Source of the DNA: a virus
Taxonomy: Duplodnaviria; Heunggongvirae; Uroviricota; Caudoviricetes
IMG/VR virus record: IMGVR_UViG_2713896899_000007
Coordinates: 1-64,000 of that record
Direction: 5' to 3' (one strand)
DNA: 64,000 nucleotides
Part shown: positions 10,658 through 61,646 of the stretch, piece by piece
Layout: each line of letters opens with the position of its first letter
Numbering within the stretch: the stretch's first letter is position 1
Notes under the pieces: model-generated
What the model was told of the DNA's origin: nothing
The model's database searches: none
Seen by the model: the letters and a program-made list of their open reading frames with translations, nothing else
Translations under genes and position numbers: made by a program

Positions 10658-10993
10658 TTAAGCCTCAAATACTTGTCTGAATGGAGCGGTTAATACTGCG
10701 TACCCTTGATATCGCTTGACCGTATGACTGTCGCATACAACTACAATCCGTTTTCCTCTTGGATTAACCCAATAGAACGACTCAACACCTGCTCGCTCAG
10801 TCAGGAAGTCATCGATTGCATTAATTTCGTTGTATGATCTGGTAAAGGTTAACGACCATTCTTCTTTAATACGATTAAGACCTTGAGCCTGTCGCTGCTC
10901 GTAGTCATCACCAAAATTAAGTACCGTTACATTCGGTTTTACGCTTTTTTCAGATTCGTAATCTGGATACCAATTAAACGTTTGTCTTTCCAT
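10658..10993 (-). CDS. minor tail protein, lambda M-like
   Basis: 111 aa; position between tape measure and L. Confidence 0.65.
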   Translation of the reverse strand: MERQTFNWYPDYESEKSVKPNVTVLNFGDDYEQRQAQGLNRIKEEWSLTFTRSYNEINAIDDFLTERAGVESFYWVNPRGKRIVVVCDSHTVKRYQGYAVLTAPFRQVFEA

Positions 10994-11035
10994 CTCACAT
11001 CCTTGTGAGACAGCCCCGACCGGGGCAGTCGATAG

Positions 11036-18425: not shown

Positions 18426-19259
18426 TTACGCACGGCGAACAATCATACGGTTGTTGATGTAACTGACCAGCAAGCGCCAGGTACTGCGAGCCACATGCAC
18501 GTTTGCAGCTTTGCCGGTACGGTACATGTTGGTTGTTTCACCGATGGACTCTGACAAAATGCCATCTTCTCGTGCTGCGGCAACATCATTGCCATTTGCG
18601 ATCTCACACGCTTCGTTGACAACGGCAAGCATCAACGCTTCTTTGAAGTAGTCAGGGAACTCTTCAAACTTCTCCTGCGTCATCTTTTCCCAATCGACTA
18701 AATCATGCCGGTACGCTCCATCTGCTCCCCACGGAATGTCATACACATTCAGCATATTTTGAGGGCGATCGTATCGGTCAAAGTCGATACGTAGAATTTT
18801 GCGGATTGAGAACGGTAAAGTTTTAATTCGTCTGGTAGCCTCAATGAGACGCTTGCGCATTAAGCCTTCACCATCCGACAGCAAAGTGTCCCCATTCAGC
18901 ATATCGATCGCCTGCATTTGAGCATCAGCGACAGTTGCAAACGACTGTTCTGGTATCGACAGTTCAAAACTATTCAGCAGAACATACATTTGCCGCTCTT
19001 CATGCGTCAGACCCGATGCAACAGCCTTCACAATGACGTACCGCAGATCGCGTTCTTTCTCAGAGAGCTGGTTATATTCAGCCGACACGACAACCGGAAT
19101 CGACATTTGACCGCTGGTAATTTCTAGCGGCTCGCCATCAACGAGAATAGCCCCGGTGCTGTCCTTTACTGTGTAGGTGGCAGATTCGATATCCAGCACG
19201 TTGAAGGCAAATGAAAGAGAAACAGCTTCACCGCTACGATACGAGTCGATCTGCGCCAT
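18426..19259 (-). CDS. hypothetical structural / head completion protein
   Basis: 277-aa ORF in head module. Confidence 0.4.
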   Translation of the reverse strand: MAQIDSYRSGEAVSLSFAFNVLDIESATYTVKDSTGAILVDGEPLEITSGQMSIPVVVSAEYNQLSEKERDLRYVIVKAVASGLTHEERQMYVLLNSFELSIPEQSFATVADAQMQAIDMLNGDTLLSDGEGLMRKRLIEATRRIKTLPFSIRKILRIDFDRYDRPQNMLNVYDIPWGADGAYRHDLVDWEKMTQEKFEEFPDYFKEALMLAVVNEACEIANGNDVAAAREDGILSESIGETTNMYRTGKAANVHVARSTWRLLVSYINNRMIVRRA

Positions 19260-19693
19260 TACTCACCGCCTTGTGCTTTCAGGATGCCTTCAATCATCTC
19301 GACAATTCCTTTCGCTTTGACACCAACCTGATTACCAATCACACGTAGACCGGCAATGCCTTCATTGTCTGCAATTGACTCCAACTCTTCTCGTGTGAAA
19401 GTCTGGATCTGTTTGGCCGGTTCATCTGGTGTCCCACGTTTCATTGGCACAATGTCAGGTGCTGCTGGCTCGGTAATCAGGTCTGCGGTCAACTCGCCAC
19501 GATCACTGTATGCGGCAGACGGAGAAACATTTTTGCCCTCGACTGTTGATGCTCGCATTGAGGCACAAATCCTTTGCTGATCGATAAAAGGCAACTCCGC
19601 TACGGACACCCCGTTCTCGAACTGAACGCCGCACAACATTCCCGAATAACCGGAAAATTGCGGTTCTAATAAAACAATTTTTGCTGGTTTCAT
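19259..19693 (-). CDS. hypothetical head-module protein
   Basis: 144-aa ORF, start/stop coupled to neighbours. Confidence 0.4.
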   Translation of the reverse strand: MKPAKIVLLEPQFSGYSGMLCGVQFENGVSVAELPFIDQQRICASMRASTVEGKNVSPSAAYSDRGELTADLITEPAAPDIVPMKRGTPDEPAKQIQTFTREELESIADNEGIAGLRVIGNQVGVKAKGIVEMIEGILKAQGGE

Positions 19694-19737
19694 AACGCAT
19701 TCTCTCTACATGGGCGGCTTTCGCCGCCCAATATTGA

Positions 19738-26039: not shown

Positions 26040-26225
26040 CTAAAACACACAGAGCGCGTCCATGCGCTCTAAAACAACTTGTTTACTGCGTATGCTAACC
26101 AACTTGTTTTCTGGGGTGTTTAATTAGGTCTGGGCATGTCTTACTAAGCCTGCTTCCGTATATATTTAATAAGTTACTTATTATTTATATATACGGAAGC
26201 AGGTCTTTAAATAAGCTCCCAGACC
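26040..26225. promoter_or_regulatory. structured region upstream of terminase: short hairpin, motif-B-like element and a long imperfect palindrome; candidate late promoter and/or cos/pac region
   Basis: AGAGCGC...GCGCTCT hairpin; CCTGCTTCCGTATATA...TATATACGGAAGCAGG palindrome at ~26150-26205. Confidence 0.35.
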
Positions 26226-36273: not shown

Positions 36274-36478
36274 GATTAATTCCTTATCGTAAATAACAAA
36301 TTGTTTTCTTGTTGGCGTTAATTATCGTTGTACGAATAAGGCGTCAAAGTGGAAAGTTGCGGTAGCCGGACGGGAACAGGTGGGTTTGTCGGTTGCCTGG
36401 AGGTAAGAGGTTGGTGTTTTTAGCCTGCGGGGAACAGGATGGTCATTTAAGGCCACCAGCGTTAACTGGTGGCGTTTG

Positions 36479-37177
36479 TCATGCTGGAATCATATCTAAT
36501 TGAAAAGATTCCATTATATATGTTGGTTCATCGATGTAGTCCTTCAGCCTATTGTCAAATGACTCAAGCGGATTGTATGGCGGATGATGCCGCTCCGAGT
36601 ATTCATTTAAAAGATGCCCCATTATCAGTTCGATACCCATCTCTACTCCTGAAACTCCGAACCATACATTGTGCGTTAGTTGCTGGGCGTCTGTATCCAG
36701 TACGCGAACGCCATCAACAAGATTTATTAGATTCCTGTGGTTTTCGTGTACTGTAACCTCTCCGCTGGTTAAGTCTATTTCAGCGAGAAAATATGGTCTT
36801 TTGCTTCCGTCGGACTTTTTGAAATGACCGTCATAAGCGATAGCAAACCACGCTTTACTAAAGTCCTTGTTGGCGTAAGTGGTGCACATACAACTAGGAT
36901 AATCATCAATGTTAAACCAATCAGGAAACGGATCATCTTTAGACGAGCCAGCAAAATCATCAGCTAGTTCGTAGCTAATGTCTGGGTTGTACTTGCTGAC
37001 AAAATCATCTACATCCTCTACATCCTCAACACCTTTCCAAACTTTACATCTCTCCGACCAAAAGAATCTCGCAATATCCGAAATGACTGGGAAACGTTTT
37101 TCAATTGAATTTATCAACTCTGCATGTTCTTTAAGAGATTTACGCTTGTTGATAAGCTTCTGAAGATGCGTACTCAT
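36479..37177 (-). CDS. hypothetical acidic protein
   Basis: 232-aa ORF with motif B upstream. Confidence 0.45.
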   Translation of the reverse strand: MSTHLQKLINKRKSLKEHAELINSIEKRFPVISDIARFFWSERCKVWKGVEDVEDVDDFVSKYNPDISYELADDFAGSSKDDPFPDWFNIDDYPSCMCTTYANKDFSKAWFAIAYDGHFKKSDGSKRPYFLAEIDLTSGEVTVHENHRNLINLVDGVRVLDTDAQQLTHNVWFGVSGVEMGIELIMGHLLNEYSERHHPPYNPLESFDNRLKDYIDEPTYIMESFQLDMIPA

Positions 37178-37291
37178 TTTTAATTCCTCGTTTGTTTTTG
37201 ATGTGATAATTATCGCAGTCAGATTAAGGCAGAAAACAAATTGTTATCGGGCATAAGAAAATGGCGCGGTTTACGCGCCATTTAAAGAGGA

Positions 37292-37687
37292 TTAAGCGAA
37301 TACGCTTTCAGGGATTAAGGTGTCAGCAGGAATGCCGGAGGTAATACGCAGACCGTACTGACCAATCCAGGTGGTGCTGGTGTTCAGGCTGGAGGTGAAT
37401 ACGGAATTAACCATATTCATCATGGTTTCAAACACCTCTTCATCAACCTGGCGGAAGTAGTTCTCGATTTTCAGCAGCAGCGGGTCAGTTGCATCGAGAA
37501 TGGACTGGTATTGCGTCGCGTACTCGCCGCCGGAGGCATCACCTTTACGCACGATCGTACTGGCCTGTACTTCGGCACCAGTTTCGGTGTTGTACGTAAC
37601 AACGGTGATTTTTGCCACATTCTTACCTTCGGCGGTTTCAGAGGCATAGTAAACATCAACTGTCAGTTTTTCGCGTTTAACGGTCAT
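37292..37687 (-). CDS. hypothetical protein
   Basis: 131-aa ORF with motif A upstream. Confidence 0.45.
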   Translation of the reverse strand: MTVKREKLTVDVYYASETAEGKNVAKITVVTYNTETGAEVQASTIVRKGDASGGEYATQYQSILDATDPLLLKIENYFRQVDEEVFETMMNMVNSVFTSSLNTSTTWIGQYGLRITSGIPADTLIPESVFA

Positions 37688-37813
37688 TTCACTCTCCGTA
37701 GTGTCTTGGTTATTTTTCTATTTTATAGCCGTAAGTATGTACTTACAATACAAAAAAGCCCCGTAAGGATGGCGGGGCTGTCGTACTGTCGACTAATTAC
37801 CACTTGCACATTA

Positions 37814-38155
37814 TCAGGCTATTGCCATCACTGATGCTCTCTGAATTTCTTGTTGGGCCACGCGGTTAACTTCCATCAAAGCCAGTTCGAGCTGATGTTC
37901 CGGCCACATTCTTTGAAATGCCACCCAGCCTTTTCCACGCTGGCGACGAACATTCATTACATAACGAGTAAAGGTGTTTTTATCGAAAGACACCGCTGTT
38001 TCACGGAACAGACGAATAGAGGTTCCATTGGCAACGATGTCCAGCAAAGTTAATTGAGCAACTAGCGCAGGCTTCTCTTTTCGCTTCTGGTCTTTGTCCA
38101 GACCAAGAACCAATGATTTTTTCATCACAACTCCGTAAACAACTTGTTTTCTCAA
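37814..38155 (-). CDS. hypothetical protein (start possibly internal at MKKSLV)
   Basis: ORF with motif B at its 5' end. Confidence 0.4.
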   Translation of the reverse strand: MRKQVVYGVVMKKSLVLGLDKDQKRKEKPALVAQLTLLDIVANGTSIRLFRETAVSFDKNTFTRYVMNVRRQRGKGWVAFQRMWPEHQLELALMEVNRVAQQEIQRASVMAIA

Positions 38156-38278
38156 TGGCGTAAATAATACCAGTAAGAAAACGGCTACAAAGCATAATGA
38201 TCAGGTGCATGATCGATATGCAGGTTCCTCCCTGCGGCTATAGAGAAATTAAGCCAGCATTGCTGGCTTTGGTTGAGG

Positions 38279-38608
38279 TTACGCGAATACTTCAAGAAAC
38301 TCCTGAACGTCCCAATGCTGGACAAGGTGAAGATAGACCTTAGAAATCACGTCATTCTCGCTATCGCATGTGAAGTAGTACTTCTGGCTGCGGTTGTATG
38401 TGTCCACACAAAATTCGCTCATATCCATAAAGTCAGCATCTTCTCCCATGTCGCAAATCATCAAAGCAGGTGCGTCATCACGAGTCATCAGCTCAAGCAC
38501 CCACCGCGAATTGATCAGAGTGGAAGACCAACCTTCCAGCTCACAGAACTGGTCAAACTCTTTTTGAGTCAATTTCTTAATTTGGTTGATGTCGATATGT
38601 GCAAACAT
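38279..38608 (-). CDS. hypothetical protein
   Basis: start moved to second Met (TAAGGAT RBS); the track ATG lies inside the conserved motif B leader. Confidence 0.4.
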   Translation of the reverse strand: MFAHIDINQIKKLTQKEFDQFCELEGWSSTLINSRWVLELMTRDDAPALMICDMGEDADFMDMSEFCVDTYNRSQKYYFTCDSENDVISKVYLHLVQHWDVQEFLEVFA

Positions 38609-38959
38609 AAAGCAATCCTTAAACAACATGTTTTCTTATTGGTGTTATTATCGCAATAACGCACAGGCGAAAAAGGATTTTATTCCGGTGAATGTGGTTT
38701 TGGCAGTGAGTTTTCAGGTTCAGTACCGAGTACACTTTTTACATTATTCTGATTTAGTGGCCGAAGATGGCTGGTGGGCAGAATAATCCTCTCCCCGAAA
38801 ACCTACTGAAATCGATTGTGACCCGCTGGCTGTCTGGCACAATTACGCTGTAGCTGGGCATTCAGAGGGAATCCAGCGGTAAGTTCGCCTGCACGTGAGC
38901 GCCTCTCTTCTTACCGCACATTACAGGTGGGTAGCCGCAACTCTCCCTCACGCTATACC

Positions 38960-39105
38960 GGTACGCCACCGTTCCTGAACCGGCATCGAGCCTTTTCCCG
39001 AAATCCACACAGGCAACTCTACCGTTTCCCTGAAAATCCCCAGCCGTTCCCCGAAGGCAACCCAGCCGTTTCTGTAGCGGGATGCAGCCTTTCCCTGTAT
39101 GGACC
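38960..39105. repeat. iteron-like direct repeats (cluster 2), about six copies at ~22-bp spacing
   Basis: CCGTTTCCCTGAAAATCCCCAG / CCGTTCCCCGAAGGCAACCCAG / CCGTTTCTGTAGCGGGATGCAG and flanking variants. Confidence 0.55.
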
Positions 39106-40176
39106 GAAGGCTGACCGTAGGGGTGTTACGGGGGATAAAATCAGGAGTTGAATAAATACGAAAAAGGAGGCGACACCCCTACTTCCCTCTCCACTTATAC
39201 ATACCAGGCTTCTTCGCTATACATGTTGTGTTTTCTTCGTGTTTTATCTGTCTCAACCTCTCTATAGGCGTTAATGCTCACTCCTACCAGAACGTTCTAT
39301 ACGGCGACTATTTCTGTTGGTGGATTAGGTGTGTTGTTTTCTCTGTCGGTGTATGTGGTTTCGTTCGTTTTGCGGTGGTTCTTCTATGGGGTGTTCTCGT
39401 CGTTTTGGTGATTGTTCTTCTCCGTATATGGAGTAATGGCAGGTGGGCGATTGCTTTCGTTATTGTGTTTGAGTTGTTTGTCTGGAGTGTGTGAAAGGCT
39501 TTTGTAGTTATTCGTGTATTGGGTAATGGCGTTTCCCGTGATTGTTATGTTTCGTGTCTTTTGGGATTGAGAGAAACCTTGCGGTTACAGGCTTCGTTGG
39601 GGTTTCAGTGATTCTGGTGTTTCTTCGCTGTTTGGGGAATGGCGTGTCGTGGGTATCGCGCGTGTGAATGTTTTCGGATTGCCTGTGAAAGTTAGGTTGG
39701 TTATCCGGTAGCCTGGGAAGAAGAGGTGGGTCTTTTCGGTAGCCTGCCATAAAGAGGTTGGTTGTTTTTGGGAATGGCATGTGTGTTATTTAGTTGTTTT
39801 GTTATGCCTGAAAATAAGTTGTTTATATGGTTGTGTAACGCAACGGGAGCGATTTTGAGCGTGTGTTTTTGTTGGTAGTGTGTTGAGTCGTCTGTGGTGA
39901 AAATTGGACGCTGTGGAGCTGTCTGCTGCGTAGGATTACGGGTATAAGAAGTGATGTGTGAAAACGTCAATTTTTTAGACCAAATCGGGAGAAAGCGTTG
40001 ATGTTTCGTTGATCTGTTATTTAGTTGTTTTCTTATTGGTATAAACAACTGTAACCTATTGATATTTAAGGATGTGATTGCAGGCATGGAAGGGGAGTAG
40101 TGGCGATCAACGGATTCTTATAGAAAAGAATCAAATTGTGACCGCCATTATCAACGGTTTGAATATGTTTGCAGAT

Positions 40177-40476
40177 TTACCAGTTCCAGCACTCAAGCCC
40201 TTCAACGACCGGCGCACCACAATCAAAATGTACAGAGTCAAAGCCTACATCAAGTACTTTCTGAATGTTAGCAATCGCGCCTTCGGATATACCATATCGA
40301 CGCAAGTCGTCTTTCCAGACATCATCCTGTAACCCGGCGTGGACAATACAACCGCCATCAATTTGTGAAACCCAATCCAGCTCATTGCTTGCGATCATGA
40401 ATCGGCGAGCATCTTCCTCTGATGTATGAGATGAACTGATCAATGCCACCTGGTAGGCTTGGGTAATGTTCAACAT
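40177..40476 (-). CDS. hypothetical protein
   Basis: track start is GTG; moved to next ATG, which has a GGAG RBS; motif B upstream. Confidence 0.35.
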   Translation of the reverse strand: MLNITQAYQVALISSSHTSEEDARRFMIASNELDWVSQIDGGCIVHAGLQDDVWKDDLRRYGISEGAIANIQKVLDVGFDSVHFDCGAPVVEGLECWNW

Positions 40477-40539
40477 TTCAACCACTCCAAAACAAGTTGT
40501 TTTCTTATGTGGCTTATTATCTCTAACAACAAAAGGCAG

Positions 40540-40690
40540 AAAACAAATTGTTTTAGGTACTGTGTAAATCAGAAGGGATTGTGTCTATATGAAAATGCCC
40601 GGCGTGTTGCCGGGCATTGCGAAGAGAGGTTGTTTAATTACTTAACCTGGTGGCCAGGTTTAGCACCGGCATCCGGCTGCAGGATGGGAG
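40540..40690. repeat. direct repeat copy 1: diverged duplicate of metG 3' end (last ~12 codons plus stop), terminator hairpin and motif B; att-like
   Basis: about 85 percent identical to 41398-41550 over ~150 bp. Confidence 0.6.
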
Positions 40691-41367
40691 GTTACGTTCG
40701 CGCTATGTTGATATTCTGATTGACGCCATTTGTGCCAAATCATCTCCTTATAGGATTCATATTGCGTTCGGTACTCTGGCTTCAAGTCAGATATGCCTTT
40801 ATTCACTACCGCTCGTACGTTTACTAATAATTCGTGCTCAATGCCTTTACTCTCTAAATATTCTACAACACCAGCATCGGGGCCAATTGCCCTGCCGTTA
40901 AAGACCATTTCCAGCATAAGCTCTGTTTCAGCAAAATAGATAGGTGAGGAACCAGGTGCACACAGCTTAATAGCAGTAAGATTGTCCAACAGGTCGGCCA
41001 ATTTAATCATTCGCGTCTGCATATCCAACGTCTTTTGCAATTCGCGAACATTAATAATGAATCTCGCAAGACTATCGCCGTCGTCTGGTTTGGCAACGTT
41101 TGCCAGCGCCAGTACCATCTCAGCTACACGATTCCCGAAATACTCGCGTACCATTTCGATAGTGATATGGGTATCTTCAATAACACCATGTAATAATGCA
41201 GCAGCCTGCATTTCGACAGTGCCTCCGTGCCAAGCAACAATCTCACGCACAGAAACTGGGTGTGTAACGTAGTCTTCCCCCGTATATCTACGCTTCTTAC
41301 CTACACCACCATACACTCCAACGGCAAACATATGAGCTTTATCAACAATCGACATAATTTGCTCCAT
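40660..41367 (-). CDS. SpoT/Rel-type HD-domain hydrolase paralogue, HG variant of the HD motif, chimeric C-terminus
   Basis: HPVSVREIV...ALLHGVIEDT...MIKLADLLDN; 3' end reads into the metG-derived repeat in another frame. Confidence 0.55.
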   Translation of the reverse strand: MEQIMSIVDKAHMFAVGVYGGVGKKRRYTGEDYVTHPVSVREIVAWHGGTVEMQAAALLHGVIEDTHITIEMVREYFGNRVAEMVLALANVAKPDDGDSLARFIINVRELQKTLDMQTRMIKLADLLDNLTAIKLCAPGSSPIYFAETELMLEMVFNGRAIGPDAGVVEYLESKGIEHELLVNVRAVVNKGISDLKPEYRTQYESYKEMIWHKWRQSEYQHSANVTSHPAAGCRC

Positions 41368-41397
41368 TATTTTGTTAATACTGTTACTCTAACTGAT

Positions 41398-41550
41398 AAT
41401 AGAACGCAGAAAACAAATTGTTTTAGGGGCTGAGTAAATCAGAAGGGATTGCGTCTATATGAAAATGCCCAGCAATACGCTGGGCATTGTGAAGAATGGT
41501 TGTTTAGTTACTTAACTTGGTGGCCTGGTTTAGCACCAGCATCCGGGCTT
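41398..41550. repeat. direct repeat copy 2, overlapping the true 3' end of metG
   Basis: homologous to 40540-40690. Confidence 0.6.
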
Positions 41551-43541
41551 AACAGGAAGATATCTTTCCCGCCGGGGCCAGCAGCCATCACCATGCCTTC
41601 GGAGATACCGAAGCGCATTTTACGCGGAGCCAGGTTAGCCACCATAATTGTGTGACGACCAATCAGTGCCTGTGGGTCTGGATAAGCAGAACGGATGCCT
41701 GAGAAGACATTACGCTTTTCACCACCGAGATCCAGTGTCAGGCGCAACAGTTTGTCAGAACCTTCAACAAACTCCGCGTTTTCAATCAGCGCCACACGCA
41801 GGTCAACTTTGGCGAAGTCGTCAAAGGTGATGGTTTCCTGAATCGGGTCGTCAGCCAGTGGGCCAGTAACTGGCGCGGCAGTAGCTTTCACTTCTTCTTT
41901 GGATGCTTCCACCAGTGCTTCCACCTGTTTCATATCGATACGGTTATACAGTGCCTTGAACGGATTCACTTTATGGCCCAGCAGCGGTTGCTGGATACCA
42001 TCCCAGGTCAGTTCTGTATTCAGGAATGCTTCTGCACGTTCAGTCAGTTTCGGCAGTACCGGTTTCAGATACGTCATCAGCACGCGGAACAGGTTAATGC
42101 CCATAGAGCAAATCGCCTGCAGATCTGCATCGCGACCTTCCTGCTTCGCCACCACCCACGGAGCCTGTTCATCGACATAGCGGTTAGCCAGGTCAGCCAA
42201 TGCCATGATTTCACGGATAGCTTTACCAAATTCGCGGCTTTCCCATGCTTCGCCAATCACTTCAGCGGCATCAGTAAAGGTTTTGTACAGTTGCGGGTCA
42301 GCCAGTTCGCTTGCCAGCACGCCGTCAAAACGCTTGTTGATAAAGCCTGCATTACGGGAGGCCAGGTTAACCACTTTGTTAACAATATCGGCATTCACTC
42401 GCTGAACGAAATCCTCCAGGTTGAGATCGATATCATCAATGCGCGAAGAGAGTTTCGCAGTGTAGTAGTAACGCAGGCTGTCAGCGTCAAAATGATTCAG
42501 CCAGGTGCTGGCTTTAATAAAGGTGCCGCGAGACTTGGACATCTTCGCACCGTTCACCGTCACATAGCCATGAACAAACAGGTTGGTCGGCTTGCGGAAG
42601 TTGCTGCCTTCCAGCATGGCAGGCCAGAACAGACTGTGGAAGTAAACGATATCTTTACCGATGAAGTGGTACAGCTCGGCGGTGGAGTCTTTCTTCCAGT
42701 ATTCATCGAAGCTGGTGGTATCGCCGCGCTTGTCGCACAGATTCTTGAAGGAACCCATGTAGCCAATCGGTGCGTCCAGCCAGACGTAGAAATATTTACC
42801 CGGCGCGTTCGGAATTTCAAAACCGAAGTAAGGTGCGTCGCGGGAGATATCCCACTGTTGCAGACCAGATTCAAACCACTCCTGCATTTTGTTTGCCACC
42901 TGCTCCTGCAACGCACCGCTGCGGGTCCATGCCTGCAACATTTCGCTGAAAGAGGGCAGATCAAAGAAGAAGTGTTCAGAATCACGCATTACCGGGGTAG
43001 CACCAGAAACCACCGATTTCGGCTCGATCAGTTCAGTCGGGCTGTAGGTCGCGCCACAAACTTCACAGTTATCGCCGTATTGATCTGGCGCTTTACATTT
43101 CGGGCAGGTGCCTTTCACAAAACGATCCGGCAGGAACATGCCTTTTTCCGGGTCGTACAACTGAGAGATAGTGCGGTTTTTAATAAAACCGTTCTCTTTC
43201 AGGCGAGTATAAATAAGCTCAGACAGCTGGCGGTTCTCTTCGCTGTGCGTCGAGTGATAGTTGTCATAGCTGATGTTAAAGCCTGCGAAATCAGTCTGGT
43301 GTTCCTGACTCATTTCGCCAATCATCTGCTCCGGTGTGATACCAAGTTGCTGTGCTTTCAGCATGATCGGCGTACCGTGGGCATCGTCGGCACAGATGAA
43401 ATTAACCTCGTGGCCGCGCATTCGCTGGTAACGAACCCAGACATCAGCCTGGATGTGCTCCAGCATATGGCCGAGGTGGATTGAGCCGTTAGCGTACGGC
43501 AGCGCGCACGTCACCAGAATTTTCTTCGCGACTTGGGTCAT
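41508..43541 (-). CDS. metG: methionyl-tRNA synthetase (host gene)
   Basis: 677-aa product with HIGH-type motif ([11 protein letters not shown]) and KMSKS; near-identical to enterobacterial MetG from MTQVAKK; the longer track ORF is an upstream in-frame extension. Confidence 0.95.
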
Positions 43542-43698
43542 AGTAGGCATTACTTCTTTGTAGTGAAAAGGGGCTTGATAGTAACAAAATGGCCTTATGT
43601 CTGCCATGTGATAACAGCATTTCTCATAAATGATTAAATGTCGTAGCTGGAGTACACTACAAGGCGACAATTGCGCAAATTAAAATAAAGGAGACGGG

Positions 43699-44799
43699 AT
43701 GAGCGAGTCCAAATCGCCGGATGCCCTGAGAGCAATGGTAGCCGGTACGCTGGCTAATTTTCAGCACCCAACCCTGAAACACAACCTGACTACGCTTAAA
43801 GCGTTACACCATGTTGCGTTGATGGATGACACACTGCATGTCGAACTAATCATGCCTTTCGTGTGGAATAAGCCTTTTGAAGACCTGAAAGAGCAATGTA
43901 GTGGTGATCTGCTCCGTATCACTGGCGCAAAGGCTATTGACTGGAAGCTGTCGTACAACATTGCCACGCTTAAGCGCGTCAAAAACCAACCAGGCATTAA
44001 TGGTGTTAAGAATATTATCGCCGTAAGCTCAGGCAAGGGCGGTGTAGGCAAATCGTCCACAGCAGTAAACTTGGCACTGGCGTTGGCTGCTGAAGGTGCG
44101 AAAGTTGGTATTTTGGATGCCGATATCTACGGGCCATCAATACCAACCATGCTGGGCGCGGAAAACCAACGTCCAACCTCACCGGACGGTACTCACATGG
44201 CACCTATCATGTCTCATGGCCTGGCAACCAATTCAATTGGCTATCTGGTCACCGACGACAATGCAATGGTGTGGCGTGGACCGATGGCCAGCAAGGCGCT
44301 GATGCAGATGTTGCAGGAAACACTGTGGCCTGATCTGGACTATCTCGTTCTCGATATGCCGCCGGGCACTGGTGATATTCAGTTGACGCTGGCGCAGAAC
44401 ATTCCTGTAACTGGTGCGGTTGTGGTAACTACGCCGCAAGACATCGCGCTGATCGATGCGAAGAAAGGCATTGTGATGTTCGAAAAAGTCGAAGTGCCAG
44501 TACTGGGTATCGTTGAAAACATGAGTGTGCATATTTGCAGTAACTGCGGTCATCACGAGCCAATTTTTGGCACCGGTGGCGCACAGAAACTGGCCGAGAA
44601 ATACAACACGCAGTTGTTAGGCCAAATGCCACTTCATATCTCTCTTCGTGAAGATCTGGATAACGGAACACCAACCGTTATTAGTCGTCCAGATAGTGAA
44701 TTTACGGCTATTTATCGTGACCTCGCAGATCGCGTTGCTGCCCAAATGTATTGGCAAGGTGAAGTAATACCTGGCGAAATCGCATTCCGCGCAGTGTGA
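43699..44799 (+). CDS. apbC: Fe-S cluster carrier ATPase ApbC/Mrp (host gene)
   Basis: deviant Walker A SGKGGVGKS and CxxC motif; divergent from metG as in E. coli. Confidence 0.95.
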   Translation: MSESKSPDALRAMVAGTLANFQHPTLKHNLTTLKALHHVALMDDTLHVELIMPFVWNKPFEDLKEQCSGDLLRITGAKAIDWKLSYNIATLKRVKNQPGINGVKNIIAVSSGKGGVGKSSTAVNLALALAAEGAKVGILDADIYGPSIPTMLGAENQRPTSPDGTHMAPIMSHGLATNSIGYLVTDDNAMVWRGPMASKALMQMLQETLWPDLDYLVLDMPPGTGDIQLTLAQNIPVTGAVVVTTPQDIALIDAKKGIVMFEKVEVPVLGIVENMSVHICSNCGHHEPIFGTGGAQKLAEKYNTQLLGQMPLHISLREDLDNGTPTVISRPDSEFTAIYRDLADRVAAQMYWQGEVIPGEIAFRAV

Positions 44800-44836
44800 T
44801 AAAAAGGTGGTGCATTGCACCACCTAAACAGTTCTC

Positions 44837-45226
44837 CTACATCACAGGACAATCATCAAACTCGCCACTTCTTGCGTCGTTGATAATGTGAGTGATCACA
44901 CCAAACACGGCATTGCTGCCCGTGCATCCATCGTCATCCTTTGGCAATGCTTCCTTCTTACCAGTTCTTAAATCCTCCAGATGCTGACGTGGATACTTCC
45001 GGTATCTTTTTACGCGATATTCCCCATCCAGAGCGCATACAAGCAGAGAACCATCAACCGGGGTAAGTGAGGAATCGACCACCAGCAATGCGCCCTGCAA
45101 TATTCCCTCACGATGATGGCTGTCAGCCGCTCTCATGAAGTAGGTCGCTGAAGGATGTCTAATTATCTGCTGATCAAGAGAAATACGGCTCTCAGCATAA
45201 TCCGCCGCAGGAGAAGGGAAGCCCAT
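44837..45226 (-). CDS. UmuD'-like S24 peptidase-fold protein (HumD-like, naturally lacks the UmuD N-terminal arm)
   Basis: begins MGFPSPAADY, i.e. at the residue after the UmuD Cys24-Gly25 cleavage site; Ser and Lys of the S24 dyad present. Confidence 0.7.
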   Translation of the reverse strand: MGFPSPAADYAESRISLDQQIIRHPSATYFMRAADSHHREGILQGALLVVDSSLTPVDGSLLVCALDGEYRVKRYRKYPRQHLEDLRTGKKEALPKDDDGCTGSNAVFGVITHIINDARSGEFDDCPVM

Positions 45227-45398
45227 AGCGTTTTGCCCTCAATACTGTTCATTTATACAGTATACATGAAAGAAGCTCACTCAGTGCAACTGATCGGTAC
45301 ATAGCACCAGACAAAGGAACATTATTTTCTCGAACAAGAAAAGGTAGAAAACAAATTGTTTAAGGCCACAGCTAGTGGCCTTAATGGAGAAGGGATGC

Positions 45399-45962
45399 TT
45401 ATTGGCTATGGCTAAAAATCAAATGAGACACTTCATTTGGTTGTAGCTCGTCAAGATCCGGGGCCACAAAACCTTTTCCGAAAGACTTCACAAGTGATTC
45501 ACCTGCCGCATCATTGTCACCTATTACGCGAAAGTCATACGGCAGCATTGCCAGTTGACGACGTAATCCTGCTGAGAAAGTCGAACCTAACAGCGCCCAC
45601 GAATTTCCGCCCGCGTTGTGCACTGCTGCACTTTTAAAAATCGACTCAGTTATCCATATCGGTCCATCTTTTAAAGGAAGATAGGTTCCCCATAGTAGCT
45701 GTCTGCCGTGCGCACGTGTGAAATACCGGGCCATCTTCGGATTGCTATGCTGCTTAGGAGCGCCTGGTCTGTATGTCTGATACCCGGCCAACATCCCATC
45801 AAACCTGTATAGAGGGAATGTAACAACTCCTTCGCTTTCATCGATCCACTGTCTATATGGATGCACATCATGGCGGTAGTTACGAGTTAGCAAATGAGCT
45901 TCCAGCTTTCCAAATTTAGTCATAACTTCGCATCCCTCATAACACTTCCCATTTATCACCAT
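45399..45962 (-). CDS. hypothetical protein, possible TOPRIM-like fold (tentative)
   Basis: VIGDNDAAG motif; start may be internal (MTKFGKLE). Confidence 0.35.
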   Translation of the reverse strand: MVINGKCYEGCEVMTKFGKLEAHLLTRNYRHDVHPYRQWIDESEGVVTFPLYRFDGMLAGYQTYRPGAPKQHSNPKMARYFTRAHGRQLLWGTYLPLKDGPIWITESIFKSAAVHNAGGNSWALLGSTFSAGLRRQLAMLPYDFRVIGDNDAAGESLVKSFGKGFVAPDLDELQPNEVSHLIFSHSQ

Positions 45963-46791
45963 ATTTCTCCATAGCTCTTAGCCAATAAACATGGCCACTA
46001 GGCATAGTGATGTGAGGCTCGCCAAACTCTTCTCCATGCACATCAAAGATGTCCCCAACAGAGAATTGGGGGATTTCTGTGCCGTTTTCACCTATATGCG
46101 TAATTCGTATACGTTTCGGTTGAGATTCGCCCCCTTTGAGCGAGTTGTTCACGGCTCTTGCAATCTTCTCCCGCAATTGCTGCGTTCCGTGATACGTAAC
46201 CGCAATATCCCTCAACTCGTTCACCAGTTCTCGAATCTGGTGATCTTTAAGCTCATTATTTGAGTGATTGGCAACAACTCTGGTTAATTCACCCTTGTCT
46301 TTTGCTCTTACGTATGCAGCTCTTGTGCATTCGACCCATGTATTACCGCCTACATTAACTTCGTAGATTAGGCTGGACTTATCTGTCAATTCGGAACAAA
46401 TACGGGCCGTGGTCTGGCAACTAGAGCATTCGCAGTTATCGCGGAAACCGTGGTCTACTGGCTTCGGTTTCACATCATCAACTTTTTCTACCCTATTGGA
46501 ATTTAAATACTTCGAAGCCTTGCTATGCCAATCGCTGGTTTTAGGATCTTGTCCATCCATCAAACGCCAGGCTTCAGCGATTAACTCATAACTAGTGACT
46601 GTAGCTTCCTGAGCATCACCAATAAGTCGTGTAATCTCTCTTTCAAGCCGACCGCCTAACTCCGTTTTAGTGCAATGTTCTGACCAATCGCCAGCCTCAA
46701 GAAGCGCGAGAATGTTTAAAATATCGTCCAATAGAACGGTAGTATTTTCGACTTCCTTCTGAAGCTCTCCGGCTGCTGATTTATGCGTCAT
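45937..46791 (-). CDS. hypothetical protein
   Basis: 284-aa ORF with Cys cluster CECSSCQ. Confidence 0.4.
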   Translation of the reverse strand: MTHKSAAGELQKEVENTTVLLDDILNILALLEAGDWSEHCTKTELGGRLEREITRLIGDAQEATVTSYELIAEAWRLMDGQDPKTSDWHSKASKYLNSNRVEKVDDVKPKPVDHGFRDNCECSSCQTTARICSELTDKSSLIYEVNVGGNTWVECTRAAYVRAKDKGELTRVVANHSNNELKDHQIRELVNELRDIAVTYHGTQQLREKIARAVNNSLKGGESQPKRIRITHIGENGTEIPQFSVGDIFDVHGEEFGEPHITMPSGHVYWLRAMEKYGDKWEVL

Positions 46792-47042
46792 TCATCATCC
46801 TCATCACAGGTTGAGAGTAGTGGGTTAGTCATTCGTCCTACTTGAGTGGCGTAGCCACGCCGACAGAGATTGCGCAGCACACTGTATATTTCGAACATCT
46901 CGGTTCGTTCATCGCCAACATCAAGCTCAGATGCCATAGCGTGGCATTCAGCCGCGAGAGCCGATATTTTCTGAAATAACTCTGCTTTATTCACTGTTCG
47001 ACTCCTGCGGCGGTTCTGGTAGTGGCATCCAGTGTGTGACAT
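46788..47042 (-). CDS. hypothetical small protein
   Basis: 84-aa ORF coupled to neighbours. Confidence 0.35.
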   Translation of the reverse strand: MSHTGCHYQNRRRSRTVNKAELFQKISALAAECHAMASELDVGDERTEMFEIYSVLRNLCRRGYATQVGRMTNPLLSTCDEDDE

Positions 47043-47286
47043 TGCTAATCAGACCATATTCATTAGTTTGAGGATGATTGCCGTTATCGTCTCCGTATTT
47101 AAGACTCTCCATAAAGCCATAATGCCTATCACCATTAACGCTCACAAAGCCGTAATAAGCAGGTATAACGCCGATCTCACACGTAACCAGCAAAGGAAAA
47201 CTAGTTCTCCAATTTAGCTCGCCGATTACAGGCATCTGCTCACTACAGCTTATCCAACCATCAGGAGTAACCGGATAGTTGCGCAT
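46987..47286 (-). CDS. hypothetical protein, possibly DUF551-like
   Basis: DGWISCSEQMP motif resembles a lambdoid early-region family. Confidence 0.35.
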   Translation of the reverse strand: MRNYPVTPDGWISCSEQMPVIGELNWRTSFPLLVTCEIGVIPAYYGFVSVNGDRHYGFMESLKYGDDNGNHPQTNEYGLISNVTHWMPLPEPPQESNSE

Positions 47287-47636
47287 TGCGACCTTAAATG
47301 CCTCATTTTCAGATTATTGAACTGACGCCCGTTTAGAGGGCCATGTTCTGTCAACATGTTGTGTAATTTCCATGCCGCGTCGTTAACTTCGTTGGATGAT
47401 CTGGGAGGCAACTTGCAAGTTTGGCTTACAGGTTCTGCACTATCAGCTTCGCGCCGCTTCTGTAGCTCTGCTGCCATCGCTCTCACGACTTCAACTGGTG
47501 CCCTTGCAGCAAACTCTATGTTGGTGATCAGCTCATTAAGATATTGCTCGCCTGGATACTGTTTCTTATCGGTTATAGTAGTCATATCACTCTCCTTTTC
47601 CCTGAAGCATAGCGGCACGGCAGGCGTTCCATCCAT
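47250..47636 (-). CDS. hypothetical protein (start possibly internal at MTTITDKK)
   Basis: ORF in tightly packed early operon. Confidence 0.35.
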   Translation of the reverse strand: MDGTPAVPLCFREKESDMTTITDKKQYPGEQYLNELITNIEFAARAPVEVVRAMAAELQKRREADSAEPVSQTCKLPPRSSNEVNDAAWKLHNMLTEHGPLNGRQFNNLKMRHLRSQCATIRLLLMVG

Positions 47637-48009
47637 CTGCGTAACAATCTCTGTGCGTCTTGAAATTTGTCACCGCTCTTGGTACATCCTTTACATCTAT
47701 TTCATCAGGCACAATCGGCGCTGGAGGGGCTGCGTAGACCTCAATAACTCCATTATCAATAGGCCACTCCCCATCCTTGATGTAGTCACTTGTGCCGTCA
47801 ACTTGCTGTTCTGCAATGTGGAATGCACCTATTGGTTTTGCTTCCAGCGAGGCCAGTGCAATTCGTGCCAGTTTTAGATCTCGTTCAACCATCTCAATAA
47901 CAACTTTGCAGTCCGCACCTTCTTTACTAACACGTCCTTTCAAGTCTTCCAGATAACTAACGCTTTCGCGTGCATGGGAGATTAACTGTTCTTTGGTTAA
48001 GGTGGTCAT
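47587..48009 (-). CDS. hypothetical protein
   Basis: 140-aa ORF. Confidence 0.4.
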   Translation of the reverse strand: MTTLTKEQLISHARESVSYLEDLKGRVSKEGADCKVVIEMVERDLKLARIALASLEAKPIGAFHIAEQQVDGTSDYIKDGEWPIDNGVIEVYAAPPAPIVPDEIDVKDVPRAVTNFKTHRDCYADGWNACRAAMLQGKGE

Positions 48010-49188: not shown

Positions 49189-49742
49189 TACGATGCCTCT
49201 AACTTGTCTAACTCTTTCAGCCCTTCACGTACCGCGTTCACAATGCGTTCCAGATACTGGTATTTCGGGTTTGGTACCGTTGGCCAGTCGGCATACCACG
49301 GATCATCACCAAAGAGATTCAGTAGTTTGTTACCGACGCCGAAACAGCAGCAGCTTTCTTTTACGTCATCGGCGTTTTCCGCCTCGTCCCACATTTCGCG
49401 AGCCAGTACGGCGTCTATTTCTCTCTCTCTTCGTAACTTTATGATTTCTGACTTCACGAAAAGCAGATTTGCATCGTTGTCATCGTCGACCGTGCTTCGC
49501 AGTTGAGGGTCGAAATAGCCGATTAGATACTCGTTGCTGACCCGCTTAATGAACGTCTGCACATCATCACCGCCCATAGCAAACCAAGCCGCAGTCCACG
49601 CTTTTCCGTAGCAGGTGATGGTGATTCTTCCCTTACCAGGTTCGTAGTTTTCAATCATCACTCGAACCGGATCGAGGCGTTCCAGATCCGTCAGCACAAA
49701 GGAAAGAACATCTATTTTTTCGATCTTCATGCAGCCTCCCAC
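49188..49742 (-). CDS. hypothetical protein
   Basis: 184-aa ORF. Confidence 0.4.
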   Translation of the reverse strand: MGGCMKIEKIDVLSFVLTDLERLDPVRVMIENYEPGKGRITITCYGKAWTAAWFAMGGDDVQTFIKRVSNEYLIGYFDPQLRSTVDDDNDANLLFVKSEIIKLRREREIDAVLAREMWDEAENADDVKESCCCFGVGNKLLNLFGDDPWYADWPTVPNPKYQYLERIVNAVREGLKELDKLEAS

Positions 49743-50368
49743 GCGCTCCAGATCAGCGATTTGTGTTTTTCATAACGTTTGATGTGTACCGGTTTCAGAA
49801 GCGCAATACCTTCAGTGACTTTCGCCATTGCGCTTAATAACAACGGGTGTTCTATACCTATCCTCTCCATGTACTCGACAACATCAGCGTTGGCACCAAT
49901 CTCCTTCCCGTTAAAAAGTACGTCCAGCATCAGCTCTTTCTCTGCAAGGTAGATAGCTGAAAACTCAGGATCGCGACTCACGATAGAAGAGGTATTGTCG
50001 AGCAGGTCAGCCAGCTTGATCATGCGCGTCTGCATGTCGAGATTTTGCTCCAGCTCCCGGACATTGATGATGAAACGCTGTATTCGATTGCCGTCTTCTG
50101 GCCTTGCGATGTTGGTCAGAGCCTGAACCATTTCAGCTACGCGCTCACCGAAGTGATCACGAACCATCTCTATGGTTACATTGGTGTCTTCGACCACATC
50201 ATGCAGAAGCGCCGCGATTTGCATCTCCACGGTTCCGTCATGCAATGCAACAATCTCTCGGACAGCAACCGGGTGGTTGATGTAGTCTTCGCCGGTATAT
50301 TTTCTTTTCTGACCAACGCCACCATGAGCGCCAGCGGCGAACATATGTGCTTCGGAAATACTAGACAT
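49727..50368 (-). CDS. SpoT/Rel-type HD-domain hydrolase (small alarmone hydrolase-like), intact HD motif
   Basis: HPVAVREIV...ALLHDVVEDT...MIKLADLLDN. Confidence 0.65.
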   Translation of the reverse strand: MSSISEAHMFAAGAHGGVGQKRKYTGEDYINHPVAVREIVALHDGTVEMQIAALLHDVVEDTNVTIEMVRDHFGERVAEMVQALTNIARPEDGNRIQRFIINVRELEQNLDMQTRMIKLADLLDNTSSIVSRDPEFSAIYLAEKELMLDVLFNGKEIGANADVVEYMERIGIEHPLLLSAMAKVTEGIALLKPVHIKRYEKHKSLIWSAWEAA

Positions 50369-50487
50369 TCTTAACTCCGTTGTTTTCTAGTTGTGGTTAT
50401 TTTCACAAATAAGAAAAGGTAGAAAACAATTTATTTAAGGCCACAACTTATGGCCTTTATTTATTCATGCAGAAGAATTTGTAGCGT

Positions 50488-53319: not shown

Positions 53320-53460
53320 AATTACACCATTAAATAATTTGTTTTCTTATTGGTGTAATTATCGCAAACTTGAAAAGGCATAAAAGCTGCATTCATAGGC
53401 GTTACAGCAGATTTAAGGCGTAAAAATGGGGGCTTTCGCCCCCTGTCGACTGGTGCAGTA

Positions 53461-54027: not shown

Positions 54028-54324
54028 GTGTTTTCCTTAATGCTTAAACAAGTTGTTTTCTTATTGGCTTTATTGTGATGTGGCATATAAGGGGAGCAAG
54101 CTAAACGTAAAGGTGCAAACTCTCTATTTTGGTCAACGAAACACAAGGGCCATTTGGCCCTTGTCATTAACACTTTGCTTTACGGACTAGCGGATAGGCG
54201 AAGTAGATCGCCAAACCAATGAGGACGCCATCAGAAATGACAGACATCATCTTTCCCGTAAAATCCACCAACACCGCCATCACCAGAAGAGCAATGACGG
54301 TCACAAGCCGGAATCTCTCAAGCA

Positions 54325-60067: not shown

Positions 60068-60712
60068 CTAATGAACGGTTACTCGGCCACAGAACCGGTT
60101 TTCTATCTTTTCTACAGCGTTATCTAGCATTCTCATCACTGATCTGGCTCTTGCTTCAACCGTGCGATATCGGTTGGAAACGACGAAGGTTTGCAGATCT
60201 CCCCTTTGCGGATGCAGGTGAATTTTTGTCAGTTCCCCGCACATCAACGCATCAATACGAGCGACATACAGACGGTCTAATGATGCTCGTTGTGATCGCA
60301 AGTAATCTCGCTCTGAGAGAGCGACTCCCGGGCGTAAGCCAGCAATGGCGTTAAAGTTTGAAATAGCAGTTTTGTGGCAAAACTTTTCGATATCGAGGGC
60401 TAACTCAATACACCGATCTTCATTTGTATGGCCGACCAAATCCAACGTGTAGGCCATAACATCAGCAGGTGTGCGATCGATAACAAAGCCTTCAACACCA
60501 CGCGTAAGTAGCTCTATATGCTTTGCTATTTCCATTTGAATCTGAAGCCGCTCATATAGAGGCATAGACTCACCTACTCGAACACCGAGGCGGCTCATCA
60601 AACTTCCGACACCAGCATCCACGTAAGGGATTCCGTAATGTTTGTCGATATATTTAGCCAGGGTTGTTTTCCCACTGCCCTGAGCACCAGTGATCCCAAT
60701 CCGGTAATCCAT
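60068..60712 (-). CDS. P-loop nucleotide kinase (probable dNMP kinase)
   Basis: Walker A GAQGSGKTT at N-terminus; placement beside DHFR and ThyA-like genes. Confidence 0.6.
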   Translation of the reverse strand: MDYRIGITGAQGSGKTTLAKYIDKHYGIPYVDAGVGSLMSRLGVRVGESMPLYERLQIQMEIAKHIELLTRGVEGFVIDRTPADVMAYTLDLVGHTNEDRCIELALDIEKFCHKTAISNFNAIAGLRPGVALSERDYLRSQRASLDRLYVARIDALMCGELTKIHLHPQRGDLQTFVVSNRYRTVEARARSVMRMLDNAVEKIENRFCGRVTVH

Positions 60713-61188
60713 TACGACCTTCTGTATACGATCTGCGAAAAGCCAGGCTCTTCCTCGCTGGCTCGTTGGGTATAAGCTGTTTCAACAGGCACAAAGCCTA
60801 AGTTACGCATCATGCTTGCCGGGAAGAATGCATCGGCGTTTGGTACATCAACGCCGATGTGGGAGAGCCAAATCTCTTCAACATGCGGCATGAATAGCGA
60901 GTAAATTTGTTCCCCGCCAATCACCCACACAGGCTCTGGTAATCGCAACACATCATCCACACCAGCAGGGTAGAATCCATTTGGTACAAAGCCATGAGAG
61001 CGCGTCAAAACGAGGTTATGACGCTCTGGAAGAGGGCGTTTGAGACTTTCCATCGTTTTACGCCCCATAACGACAGTGGCGTTTTTGGTGAGTCTCTTAA
61101 ATAGCTTCAGATCGGTAGAACAACGCCAGGGCAGTTCGTTCGCTATGCCGATCTCATAGTTACGGCCAACAGCAGCTATCATCTTCAT
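60712..61188 (-). CDS. dihydrofolate reductase
   Basis: MIAAVGRNYEIG...LPW...VMGRKT..S...PLP.R.N.VL...VIGG pattern of FolA. Confidence 0.8.
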   Translation of the reverse strand: MKMIAAVGRNYEIGIANELPWRCSTDLKLFKRLTKNATVVMGRKTMESLKRPLPERHNLVLTRSHGFVPNGFYPAGVDDVLRLPEPVWVIGGEQIYSLFMPHVEEIWLSHIGVDVPNADAFFPASMMRNLGFVPVETAYTQRASEEEPGFSQIVYRRS

Positions 61189-61646
61189 TTGCTCACCTCA
61201 TAGATGACCGGTCTATGATGAGAGTCAGCTAAAGCGGCACGGAGTCGAGGATCGTGCACCAGCGCAGCGATAAGCAGATCGCCTTTATGCTCCGCTAATG
61301 TGCGCTTAATATGCTTCTCATAACTGGTGCCATTCGGTACAAGATGAAGCCAGTCGTAATCAACGCCAAAATCTTTCAGCCATCGTTTAGTGGGCGCTTC
61401 AAGAGTTTCAGAGCGGCTACTGATAAGCACCACTTCAGCCCCTGAGCGAGCAAAACCACGCAACATACGGCTGGTGGGGAAAATGAGTTCATCACCGGCA
61501 ATGAGCTGGCCTGCATCCGCGTCAGATACAGATTTACGATGGCTGGTATTTGCCAGCACACCTTCAATTTCGCATAAGACATACATACCTCTTGCCATAT
61601 CACACCGCCACTGGAACCTTGATCCACGGTAGAGGGTCATAGCCAA
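61185..61646 (-). CDS. HAD-like fold protein with E-x-E in place of the D-x-D nucleophile motif (tentative)
   Basis: YVLCEIEGVL, VVLISSRSE, GDLLIAALVHD; start may be internal. Confidence 0.35.
   Translation of the reverse strand: MAMTLYRGSRFQWRCDMARGMYVLCEIEGVLANTSHRKSVSDADAGQLIAGDELIFPTSRMLRGFARSGAEVVLISSRSETLEAPTKRWLKDFGVDYDWLHLVPNGTSYEKHIKRTLAEHKGDLLIAALVHDPRLRAALADSHHRPVIYEVSK

Follow-up and report, generated by a model that had tools for sequence, protein, structure and literature searches.

metG-apbC as probable captured cargo of an SSU5-type phage-plasmid of Escherichia, with a duplicated metG end that resembles a cassette scar

Two ordinary enterobacterial genes lying within phage-type DNA raise the question of which is the guest and which the host. 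The 64,000-nucleotide (nt) stretch studied here (hereafter the window; positions 1 to 64,000 of IMG/VR virus record IMGVR_UViG_2713896899_000007, Caudoviricetes) carries metG, encoding a methionyl-tRNA synthetase (MetRS), and apbC (mrp), encoding an Fe-S cluster carrier, together with a second, diverged copy of the metG 3' end nearby. An earlier note, made from the letters alone, had read this arrangement as site-specific integration into the 3' end of metG, keeping phage capture of host DNA as a fallback. Our analysis favors the fallback. We consider it quite probable that the window belongs to an Escherichia SSU5-type phage-plasmid with an anciently captured metG-apbC, and that the duplicated metG tail is the scar of a small cassette, not an attachment (att) site.

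The first evidence comes from the replicon. The 5.5-kb region around metG-apbC matches p009_B, a circular 110,182-bp plasmid of E. coli strain 9, at 100%, and plasmids matching it at 95-99% identity occur in 163 of 5,426 complete E. coli genomes (~3%); the E. coli chromosomes, every one of them, reach only 80-90%. Database annotation of p009_B lists a RepB initiator and two ParB-family genes, a siphovirus module (portal, major capsid, tape measure, tail fiber and terminase), and also DNA polymerase III alpha, NrdAB, ThyA, dihydrofolate reductase (DHFR) and tRNAs. The terminase large subunit (TerL) of the window is 96.4% identical to that of phage SSU5 and 95.2% identical to those of Klebsiella SSU5-like phages, and genomes near-identical to this replicon have been deposited both as phages (Cyrano, PhiR41_1, CMS-2020a) and as plasmids. 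With the prototype phage-plasmids SSU5 and pHCM2 (of S. Typhi) the window has structural genes in common, and its nucleotide-metabolism genes and an HD-domain gene follow the order seen in SSU5 (NrdAB, ThyA, DHFR, exonuclease, methyltransferase and RNase H genes). Given this gene set, TerL, gene order and the phage deposits, the window can be assigned by its sequence to an SSU5/pHCM2-supergroup phage-plasmid of Escherichia, predicted to be a temperate siphovirus kept as a ~110-kb circular plasmid. It differs from the prototypes in the accessory region past the hydrolase gene: at megablast level SSU5 did not match the 5.5-kb region, and only the Escherichia/Shigella lineage has metG-apbC.

Both genes of the block are intact, and the view of them as enterobacterial holds. 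MetG differs from its K-12 counterpart at 8 of 677 amino acids (98.8% identity; 93.8% in nucleotides), and ApbC is 94% identical to K-12 Mrp in amino acids but only 82% in nucleotides. The MetRS translation contains HLGH, KMSKS, the zinc-knuckle cysteines CPKC...CEVC and a C-terminal tRNA-binding domain, and the Pfam domains tRNA-synt_1g, Anticodon_3 and tRNA_bind are recorded for identical copies of this protein; in ApbC, Walker A (GKGGVGKS) and the CxxC motif are both preserved. The genes are divergent, as in the K-12 chromosome. Their intergenic region is alignable with Citrobacter over up to 132 nt at 78% and with Escherichia over only 51 nt, and homology to K-12 falls into two segments, one comprising metG with 51 nt upstream (41508-43592) and the other apbC (43706-44792).

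The edges of the block are sharp. On the metG side K-12 homology reaches the stop codon and no further; on the apbC side it breaks off 7 nt before the last base of the stop codon, and among 81 enterobacterial chromosomes the homologous block likewise spans metG stop to apbC stop. Neither the 148 nt past metG nor the 100 nt past apbC found a match in those chromosomes. The metG-less relative pTB212 aligns with the window as far as 40553, inside a palindromic element (motif B, described below), and again from the humD stop codon at 44837; a DUF4145 gene occupies the place of the metG module there. Phage genes do resume after apbC, with humD following at 37 bp and not at the 40 bp first given. 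The hairpin lying between the two stop codons has no match in the enterobacterial chromosomes or in the metG-less relative. On the other side, most relatives have the DUF5983 gene as the backbone gene that follows the metG module downstream, and its position is the same in L003, L004, L085 and L102.

From the homology edges, the flanks without chromosomal match and the points where pTB212 resumes, we delimit a putative module that sits between motif B and humD and comprises the terminator and spacer, the genes metG and apbC with the native DNA between them, and a short hairpin. Judged on these boundaries, metG-apbC appears as captured cargo and not as an integration target, and the fallback of the earlier note is borne out by the confinement of chromosome homology to this stop-to-stop interval and by the DUF4145 gene in its place in pTB212. 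An assembly chimera, in which chromosomal metG-apbC reads were misjoined to a phage or plasmid contig, would be suggested by the typical housekeeping character of the two genes. We regard this as having a negligible chance of being right, since identities of only 94% (metG) and 82% (apbC) to E. coli chromosomal genes exclude host reads as the source, and the block sits at a matching position in ~200 records of plasmids and 4 of phages, as well as in many independent contigs. The region is also found in plasmids of E. albertii, E. marmotae, E. fergusonii and S. sonnei.

The presence of metG on such elements is already published for Shigella and E. coli, so the window adds a member and not a discovery. 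Phage-plasmid-borne metG was reported earlier, according to PMC12452169, which cites Tam et al. (2024; medRxiv 10.1101/2024.10.27.24316207); the summary there links its expression to antimicrobial survival and to a subpopulation predisposed to acquiring resistance, and multiple, highly variable metG copies are mentioned. A 2025 preprint assigns pWPMR2-like elements to the SSU5 supergroup and reports them as widespread in E. coli, with occurrences in clonal complexes (bioRxiv 10.1101/2025.09.12.675607). These pWPMR2-like phage-plasmids of S. sonnei and E. coli are the same kind of replicon with the same metG cargo, and S. sonnei plasmids of 107-109 kb are 97.4-97.7% identical in nucleotides to the window's metG-apbC block and humD flank. 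In comparison with them, the window has an additional 870-bp cassette after metG, consisting of a hydrolase paralogue and a second terminator/motif copy.

We then considered the origin and age of the captured block. Phage-plasmid metG is 92.4-94.3% identical in nucleotides to metG of every Escherichia species sampled, 85-87% to that of Citrobacter and most other sampled genera, and 83% to that of one Salmonella enterica genome; phage-plasmid apbC reaches at most 77-83% with any sampled sequence. A chromosomal donor was not found among 80 species representatives, in which the best matches were 94.3% for metG (E. ruysiae) and 83% for apbC. In neighbor-joining trees that included six phage-plasmid alleles per gene, these alleles were monophyletic (96% bootstrap for metG, 100% for apbC). 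The metG clade is nested in Escherichia, and the apbC clade is sister to Escherichia on a long branch; the third-position G+C content of apbC is 0.51, against 0.62 in K-12.

Substitution patterns point to long maintenance of both genes. Between phage-plasmid alleles, the ratio of non-synonymous to synonymous divergence (dN/dS) is 0.004-0.015 for metG, with dS up to 0.33, and 0-0.007 for apbC, with dS up to 0.2; between phage-plasmid and chromosomal copies it is 0.02 for either gene. With dN/dS near 0.01, dS to 0.33 and monophyly, we conclude that the alleles would go back to a single old capture from the Escherichia lineage, both genes having apparently been kept under strong purifying selection. 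Five of the six phage-plasmids compared encode one and the same ApbC protein, the sixth, E. marmotae plasmid L087 (NZ_CP146383.1), differing at one non-synonymous site, and apbC dN is zero for all pairs except those with L087. As this near-invariance coexists with a dS of up to 0.2, apbC is probably not a mere passenger. Recent gene conversion of this metG by host metG was considered and rejected: in a scan of 150-nt windows against Escherichia chromosomes no identical patch was found, each window showing 2-19 differences from every chromosome tested.

What, then, is the second metG 3' end? The direct repeat that contains it (40497-40676 and 41367-41546) measures 180 nt at 81% identity. The earlier note had recognized a real repeat, although its spacing is 870 bp instead of 0.86 kb and the pairing offered was ~10 nt out of register. 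A conserved core (40538-40676 and 41408-41546) is identical at 121 of 139 positions (87%), far above chance: elsewhere on the plus strand of the window, no ungapped match to the core exceeds 58/139. Identity is 59% over the outermost 41 nt of the repeat (40497-40537) and falls to 15-23% just outside it. Read on the metG strand, each copy (R1 on the left, R2 on the right) has the last 13 metG codons with the stop codon, a 10-bp hairpin followed by UUUUCAU, a conserved spacer and the motif AGAAAACAAATTGTTTTAGG. The metG part of the core accounts for 40 nt at 90% identity, and the other 99 of the 139 nt are non-host DNA. The longest identical run between the copies, 22 nt, is the dispersed palindromic motif, and within metG it is 11 nt. 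The hairpins are terminator-like (z = -4.8 in R1 and -3.8 in R2), with one compensatory stem change between copies. In the E. marmotae plasmid L087, the whole 25-nt stem-loop corresponding to 41464-41488 is flipped (6062-6086, 100% opposite-strand match).

At three positions the R1 remnant departs from the live metG 3' end, each time synonymously in the metG frame and with a variant that functional alleles also have, so that the remnant must derive from a once-working metG allele. Between the two cassette-bearing plasmids it shows substitutions and a 4-nt indel, as expected of a scar. Relatives lacking the HD gene carry the repeat once, as R1 type in L003 and L004 and as R2 type in L085. In L003 and L004 the R1-type copy joins metG within an 8-bp identity, TGGTGGCC. 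In E. albertii pEA11_2 the single copy is of R2 type from 41403 rightward (99% identity), joined to an R1-type left part within motif B.

The only gene between the repeat copies is an HD-domain open reading frame (ORF), as noted before, encoding an additional paralogue of the PaSpo-type small alarmone hydrolases. The earlier statement that the junction rewrote its 3' end is also correct: the ancestral stop TAA is now CAA, translation continues for 21 codons, and the last ~9 of these cross the metG remnant in another frame. The protein is 63% identical to the product of the window's second HD gene, which we call the home copy, and 67.6% identical over 210 residues to that of the sole HD_4 gene the search found in SSU5, located there at the locus equivalent to the home copy. 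On the left, motif B and the similar sequence leading from it to the start codon are common to the additional copy, the home copy and a 74% identical relative (P0002); on the right, homology of the additional gene to this relative stops 2-4 nt past the ancestral stop. The cassette is rare, occurring in two complete E. coli plasmids and 15 independent contigs, a recurrence that also excludes an assembly artifact, and its context is invariably metG-HD-DUF5983, including in every contig that encodes the 231-amino-acid HD protein. Cassette alleles are ~3% divergent, like the backbone.

These observations bear directly on the att reading, according to which the repeats would be the attL and attR of an element that entered the 3' end of metG by site-specific integration and restored the gene end, leaving the HD gene as its remnant. 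The repeat does include the last 40 nt of metG at 90% identity, and L003, L004 and L085 look like empty sites with one copy and no HD gene, which homologous recombination predicts likewise. When L004, the closest backbone, is taken for comparison, the 8-bp identity in metG (TGGTGGCC) delimits the 870-bp difference, which is formally Campbell-like, and a tyrosine recombinase is present on the plasmid. Nevertheless, we judge this reading very improbable. The replicon is a phage-plasmid on which metG itself is cargo, and no recombinase lies in or beside the 870-bp insert; the sole annotated one in p009_B, a tyrosine recombinase (18627-19730), lies ~58 kb away and outside the window. The one gene of the insert is a paralogue of a native gene of the SSU5 family and has that family's upstream motif, 99 of 139 conserved repeat nt are non-host, the left junction falls on a dispersed motif, and in comparison with L085 the exchange point is in motif B and not in metG. 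A variant proposal, remnants of tandem or sequential integrations at metG, is likewise not supported: the 870-bp interval holds a single gene, a paralogue of one found at its own locus in the SSU5 family. Prophages and islands integrated at gene 3' ends likewise show a direct repeat with the gene end around extra DNA and a single copy in relatives; the window differs from them in an insert without integrase, a "target" that is cargo, a repeat made up mostly of non-host regulatory DNA, and junctions on a dispersed motif.

A tandem duplication of metG, terminator and motif B, in which all but the last 40 nt of the second metG was replaced by the hydrolase gene and the single-copy forms are deletion products, deserves more weight, although it remains unlikely in our estimation. 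R1 and R2 types each occur as the sole copy after metG in different plasmids, and a crossover in the metG 3' end would leave the R1 type whereas one in motif B would leave the R2 type. Moreover, the deepest-branching phage-plasmid, L087, has an R2-like terminator, and the ~3% distance between cassette alleles, resembling that of the backbone, implies that the cassette is not very recent. However, none of the plasmids examined has two full tandem metG copies, and the cassette is found in only 2 of ~163 E. coli carriers. The repeat copies are 13-19% different, far above the cassette alleles, which would require a very old duplication or import from another lineage, and the left junction is homologous to the upstream regions of other HD genes, which favors exchange at motif B over replacement inside metG.

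The reading we prefer, a captured block with a later cassette, can be laid out as a sequence of events. An ancestor of these phage-plasmids would have taken up a 3.29-kb chromosomal block (metG, apbC and their common promoter region) from a donor of the Escherichia lineage, trimmed to the two stop codons. The block would have been placed in a variable accessory region, with its own terminator and motif B as the left edge and the humD stop as the right edge, and the element would thereby supply its host with an extra MetRS and an extra ApbC. As for the duplicated end of metG, it would be the right-hand scar of a small cassette present in few members, in which the PaSpo-type paralogue, bringing along an upstream region with motif B, precedes the terminal 40 nt of a second, once-functional metG allele, that allele's terminator and motif B. 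We infer that the left junction arose through homologous exchange at motif B. The right one would have formed in a single step, when the region around the hydrolase stop was joined illegitimately to the end of a metG on a molecule that offered a second metG-module end, either in a tandem metG duplication or in another phage-plasmid. A homologous crossover between the repeat copies could delete the cassette again. The arrangement as a whole is one of ordinary mosaic recombination. Of this account, the replicon type, the capture boundaries, the selection, the cassette homologies and the junction positions are shown by the data, whereas the order and direction of the events, like a regulatory role of motif B, are inferred.

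Several observations weigh against this account or limit it. The genes metG and apbC give discordant depths, with metG nested in Escherichia (dS ~0.3) and apbC sister to it (dS ~1.7), so that a single co-capture would call for markedly different rates or for metG having been replaced later. The protein search for a cassette donor returned nothing closer than P0002, at 74% amino acid identity, and no intermediate was found; nor was a source identified for the ~30 nt that separate the HD stop from the metG remnant. Since R1 and R2 types both exist as single-copy alleles in different plasmids, the data are compatible both with gain of the cassette by an ancestor that lacked the HD gene and with an ancient HD-bearing state from which two alternative deletions led to the present forms. 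The scan of 39900-45600 found no sigma-70 consensus promoter beside motif B on the gene strand. Finally, beyond the part studied the window and p009_B are not base-for-base the same: coordinate offsets of 36944, 36950 and 36960 occur, with small indels near 36300-40000 and 44000-48000, and sampled 60-mers of window positions 1-8000 had no match, so that the window derives from a close relative of p009_B and not from that exact record.

Motif B recurs at the relevant edges. With up to 3 mismatches, AGAAAACAAATTGTTTTAGG has 11 copies in the window against 0.03 expected, and its core is a 7-1-7 palindrome, AAAACAA-N-TTGTTTT. Copies at 40538, 41408 and 45346 place it on both flanks of metG-apbC, in agreement with the phage-type flanking motifs reported earlier. 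The note had distinguished motifs A and B; the opposite-strand copy at 40486-40505 is probably its motif A, and the two are most likely, from their sequences, one palindrome in two orientations. Copies checked against gene calls are intergenic, placed anywhere from directly beside minus-strand ORFs to ~120 nt upstream of them, and one lies ahead of the small terminase gene. Among the further copies listed in Table 1, those in gene sense stand 0-14 nt before start codons, beside the ribosome-binding site, and those in the opposite orientation 40-120 nt upstream. A promoter function was not called, as there is no sigma-70-like site beside motif B on the gene strand, and promoter and terminator counts in the scanned interval were no higher than in shuffles. 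We suggest that motif B may be a binding site for a phage-plasmid regulator. It marks the left edge of the metG module and of the hydrolase cassette and lies upstream of the home hydrolase gene, and these three junctions hint at a role in recombination. In mosaic temperate lambdoid phages, modules are exchanged at conserved intergenic boundary sequences, the "linkers". Motif B is also a short intergenic element at module edges, but differs from linkers in being a 7-1-7 palindrome and probably a protein-binding site. The coordinates of these features are collected in Table 1.

Table 1. Positions of the features discussed, in window coordinates.
Feature	Position	Strand	Remarks
Further palindrome copies	26068-26087, 37231-37250, 38133-38152, 38617-38636, 53328-53347, 54042-54061
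DUF5983 gene	40177..40398	-	Pfam PF19419, E = 4e-9
Palindrome copy	40486..40505	-	directly upstream of DUF5983 ORF; opposite-strand motif B match, 3 mismatches; inverted repeat 94% complementary
Repeat copy R1 (core)	40538..40676	-	whole repeat reaches 40497; spacer between motif B and hairpin
R1, motif B	40538-40557	-
R1, hairpin	40594-40618	-
R1, metG 3' remnant	40637-40676	-	40 nt
Additional HD_4-domain gene	40660..41355/41367	-	PaSpo-type small-alarmone-hydrolase paralogue; Pfam HD_4 (PF13328), E = 2e-15
Repeat copy R2	41367..41546	-	spacer between motif B and hairpin
R2, HD-type upstream region	41367-41407	-
R2, motif B	41408-41427	-
R2, hairpin	41464-41488	-
R2, true metG 3' end	41508-41546	-
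metG	41508..43541	-	class I methionyl-tRNA synthetase; 677 aa; intact
metG-apbC intergenic region	43542..43698	.	donor-derived; 51 metG-proximal nt align to Escherichia
apbC (mrp)	43699..44799	+	Fe-S cluster carrier P-loop ATPase; 366 aa; intact
Hairpin, 9 bp	44805..44825	-	terminator-like, followed by minus-strand T-run; between apbC and humD stop codons
humD / S24 peptidase gene	44837..45226	-	UmuD-like; Pfam PF00717; first right-hand backbone gene
Third motif B copy	45346-45365	-	overlaps 10-bp hairpin 45360-45384; upstream of humD
Home PaSpo-type hydrolase gene	49727..50368	-	intact HD dyad; upstream motif B 50421-50440 and hairpin

The surroundings of the module show further signs of exchange. 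In the E. marmotae plasmid L087, a host-type der gene (ribosome-biogenesis GTPase) lies directly after apbC at 9656-11128, replacing the humD/S24 gene; from this, the site after apbC seems to collect translation-related host genes. In the window, humD and its upstream region (44837-45496) are 86-88% identical in nucleotides to the P1-family phage-plasmids P1, P7, SJ46, D6 and RCS47, which indicates exchange between the SSU5-type and P1-type groups. To the left, ~1.5 kb without annotated genes (38660-40176) is 96-98% conserved in relatives and rich in short dispersed repeats, with three GGGAATGGCGTGT-like elements, a 31-nt tandem pair at 39706-39767 and more palindrome copies. This stretch may serve as an origin, in partition or in regulation. 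Tandem Repeats Finder detected nothing in the gene-poor interval 38500-40300, and an Rfam scan of the whole window at gathering thresholds gave no match. On the backbone, the phage DHFR gene (~60710-61190; plasmid 97672-98148), a homologue of SSU5_083, is annotated by NCBI as trimethoprim-resistant DfrA51 and is possibly an intrinsic resistance determinant. The home hydrolase gene is itself variable: it was found in only 41 of the 5,426 complete E. coli genomes, which corresponds to roughly one in four metG-bearing phage-plasmids.

The cassette gene invites a functional reading. PaSpo, the small alarmone hydrolase of phage SSU5, has been tested experimentally and neutralizes toxic small alarmone synthetases (PMC7229694), and it removes the tRNA 3' pyrophosphate added by such synthetases (bioRxiv 10.1101/2024.07.05.602228). 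The additional HD protein is of the same length class, with the same upstream motif, but differs from SSU5 PaSpo in its dyad and in a 21-residue tail encoded by the junction. The dyad motif LLHD is kept in SSU5, the home copy and L091; the additional copy reads LLHG in the window and eight contigs, and LLNG in L086, the second complete cassette-bearing plasmid. Because the His-Asp dyad is changed to His-Gly or Asn-Gly and the stop is lost, hydrolase activity is doubtful and the protein should not be classed as an active hydrolase. Comparisons of its alleles gave 9 synonymous and 6-8 non-synonymous changes, a dN/dS of 0.19-0.25 similar to that of the home copy versus SSU5; a back-of-envelope binomial estimate of the synonymous excess is roughly P = 0.002. 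A ratio of ~0.2 argues that the gene may not simply be decaying.

It lies directly downstream of the phage-plasmid's second MetRS, which suggests a broader and more speculative idea, to which we give only a slim chance: that the additional PaSpo paralogue is a maintained, non-catalytic or re-specialized cargo partner and not a decaying duplicate, and that the palindrome is at once an operator and a preferred crossover point. If this were true, the paralogue and metG, perhaps with the invariant ApbC, would form a module tuning tRNA charging and alarmone signaling, which could adjust host dormancy or blunt tRNA-targeting anti-phage toxins. The 7-1-7 palindrome would then be the operator of a global phage-plasmid regulator and the crossover point at which accessory modules are swapped.

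For genome scanning, this locus teaches that duplication of a host gene's 3' end beside phage DNA is insufficient for calling an att site. A housekeeping aminoacyl-tRNA synthetase on a widespread phage-plasmid is of medical interest, since the literature links it to antimicrobial survival in epidemic Shigella. The additions made here are modest: the stop-to-stop capture that includes apbC, a near-invariant ApbC, and an apparently single, old, Escherichia-affiliated origin. A further small one is the rare variant with a second alarmone-hydrolase paralogue whose active site is mutated. For this family of phage-plasmids, the metG-apbC site appears as a swap point, occupied by DUF4145 in a metG-less relative and extended by an extra der beside apbC in the E. 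marmotae plasmid.

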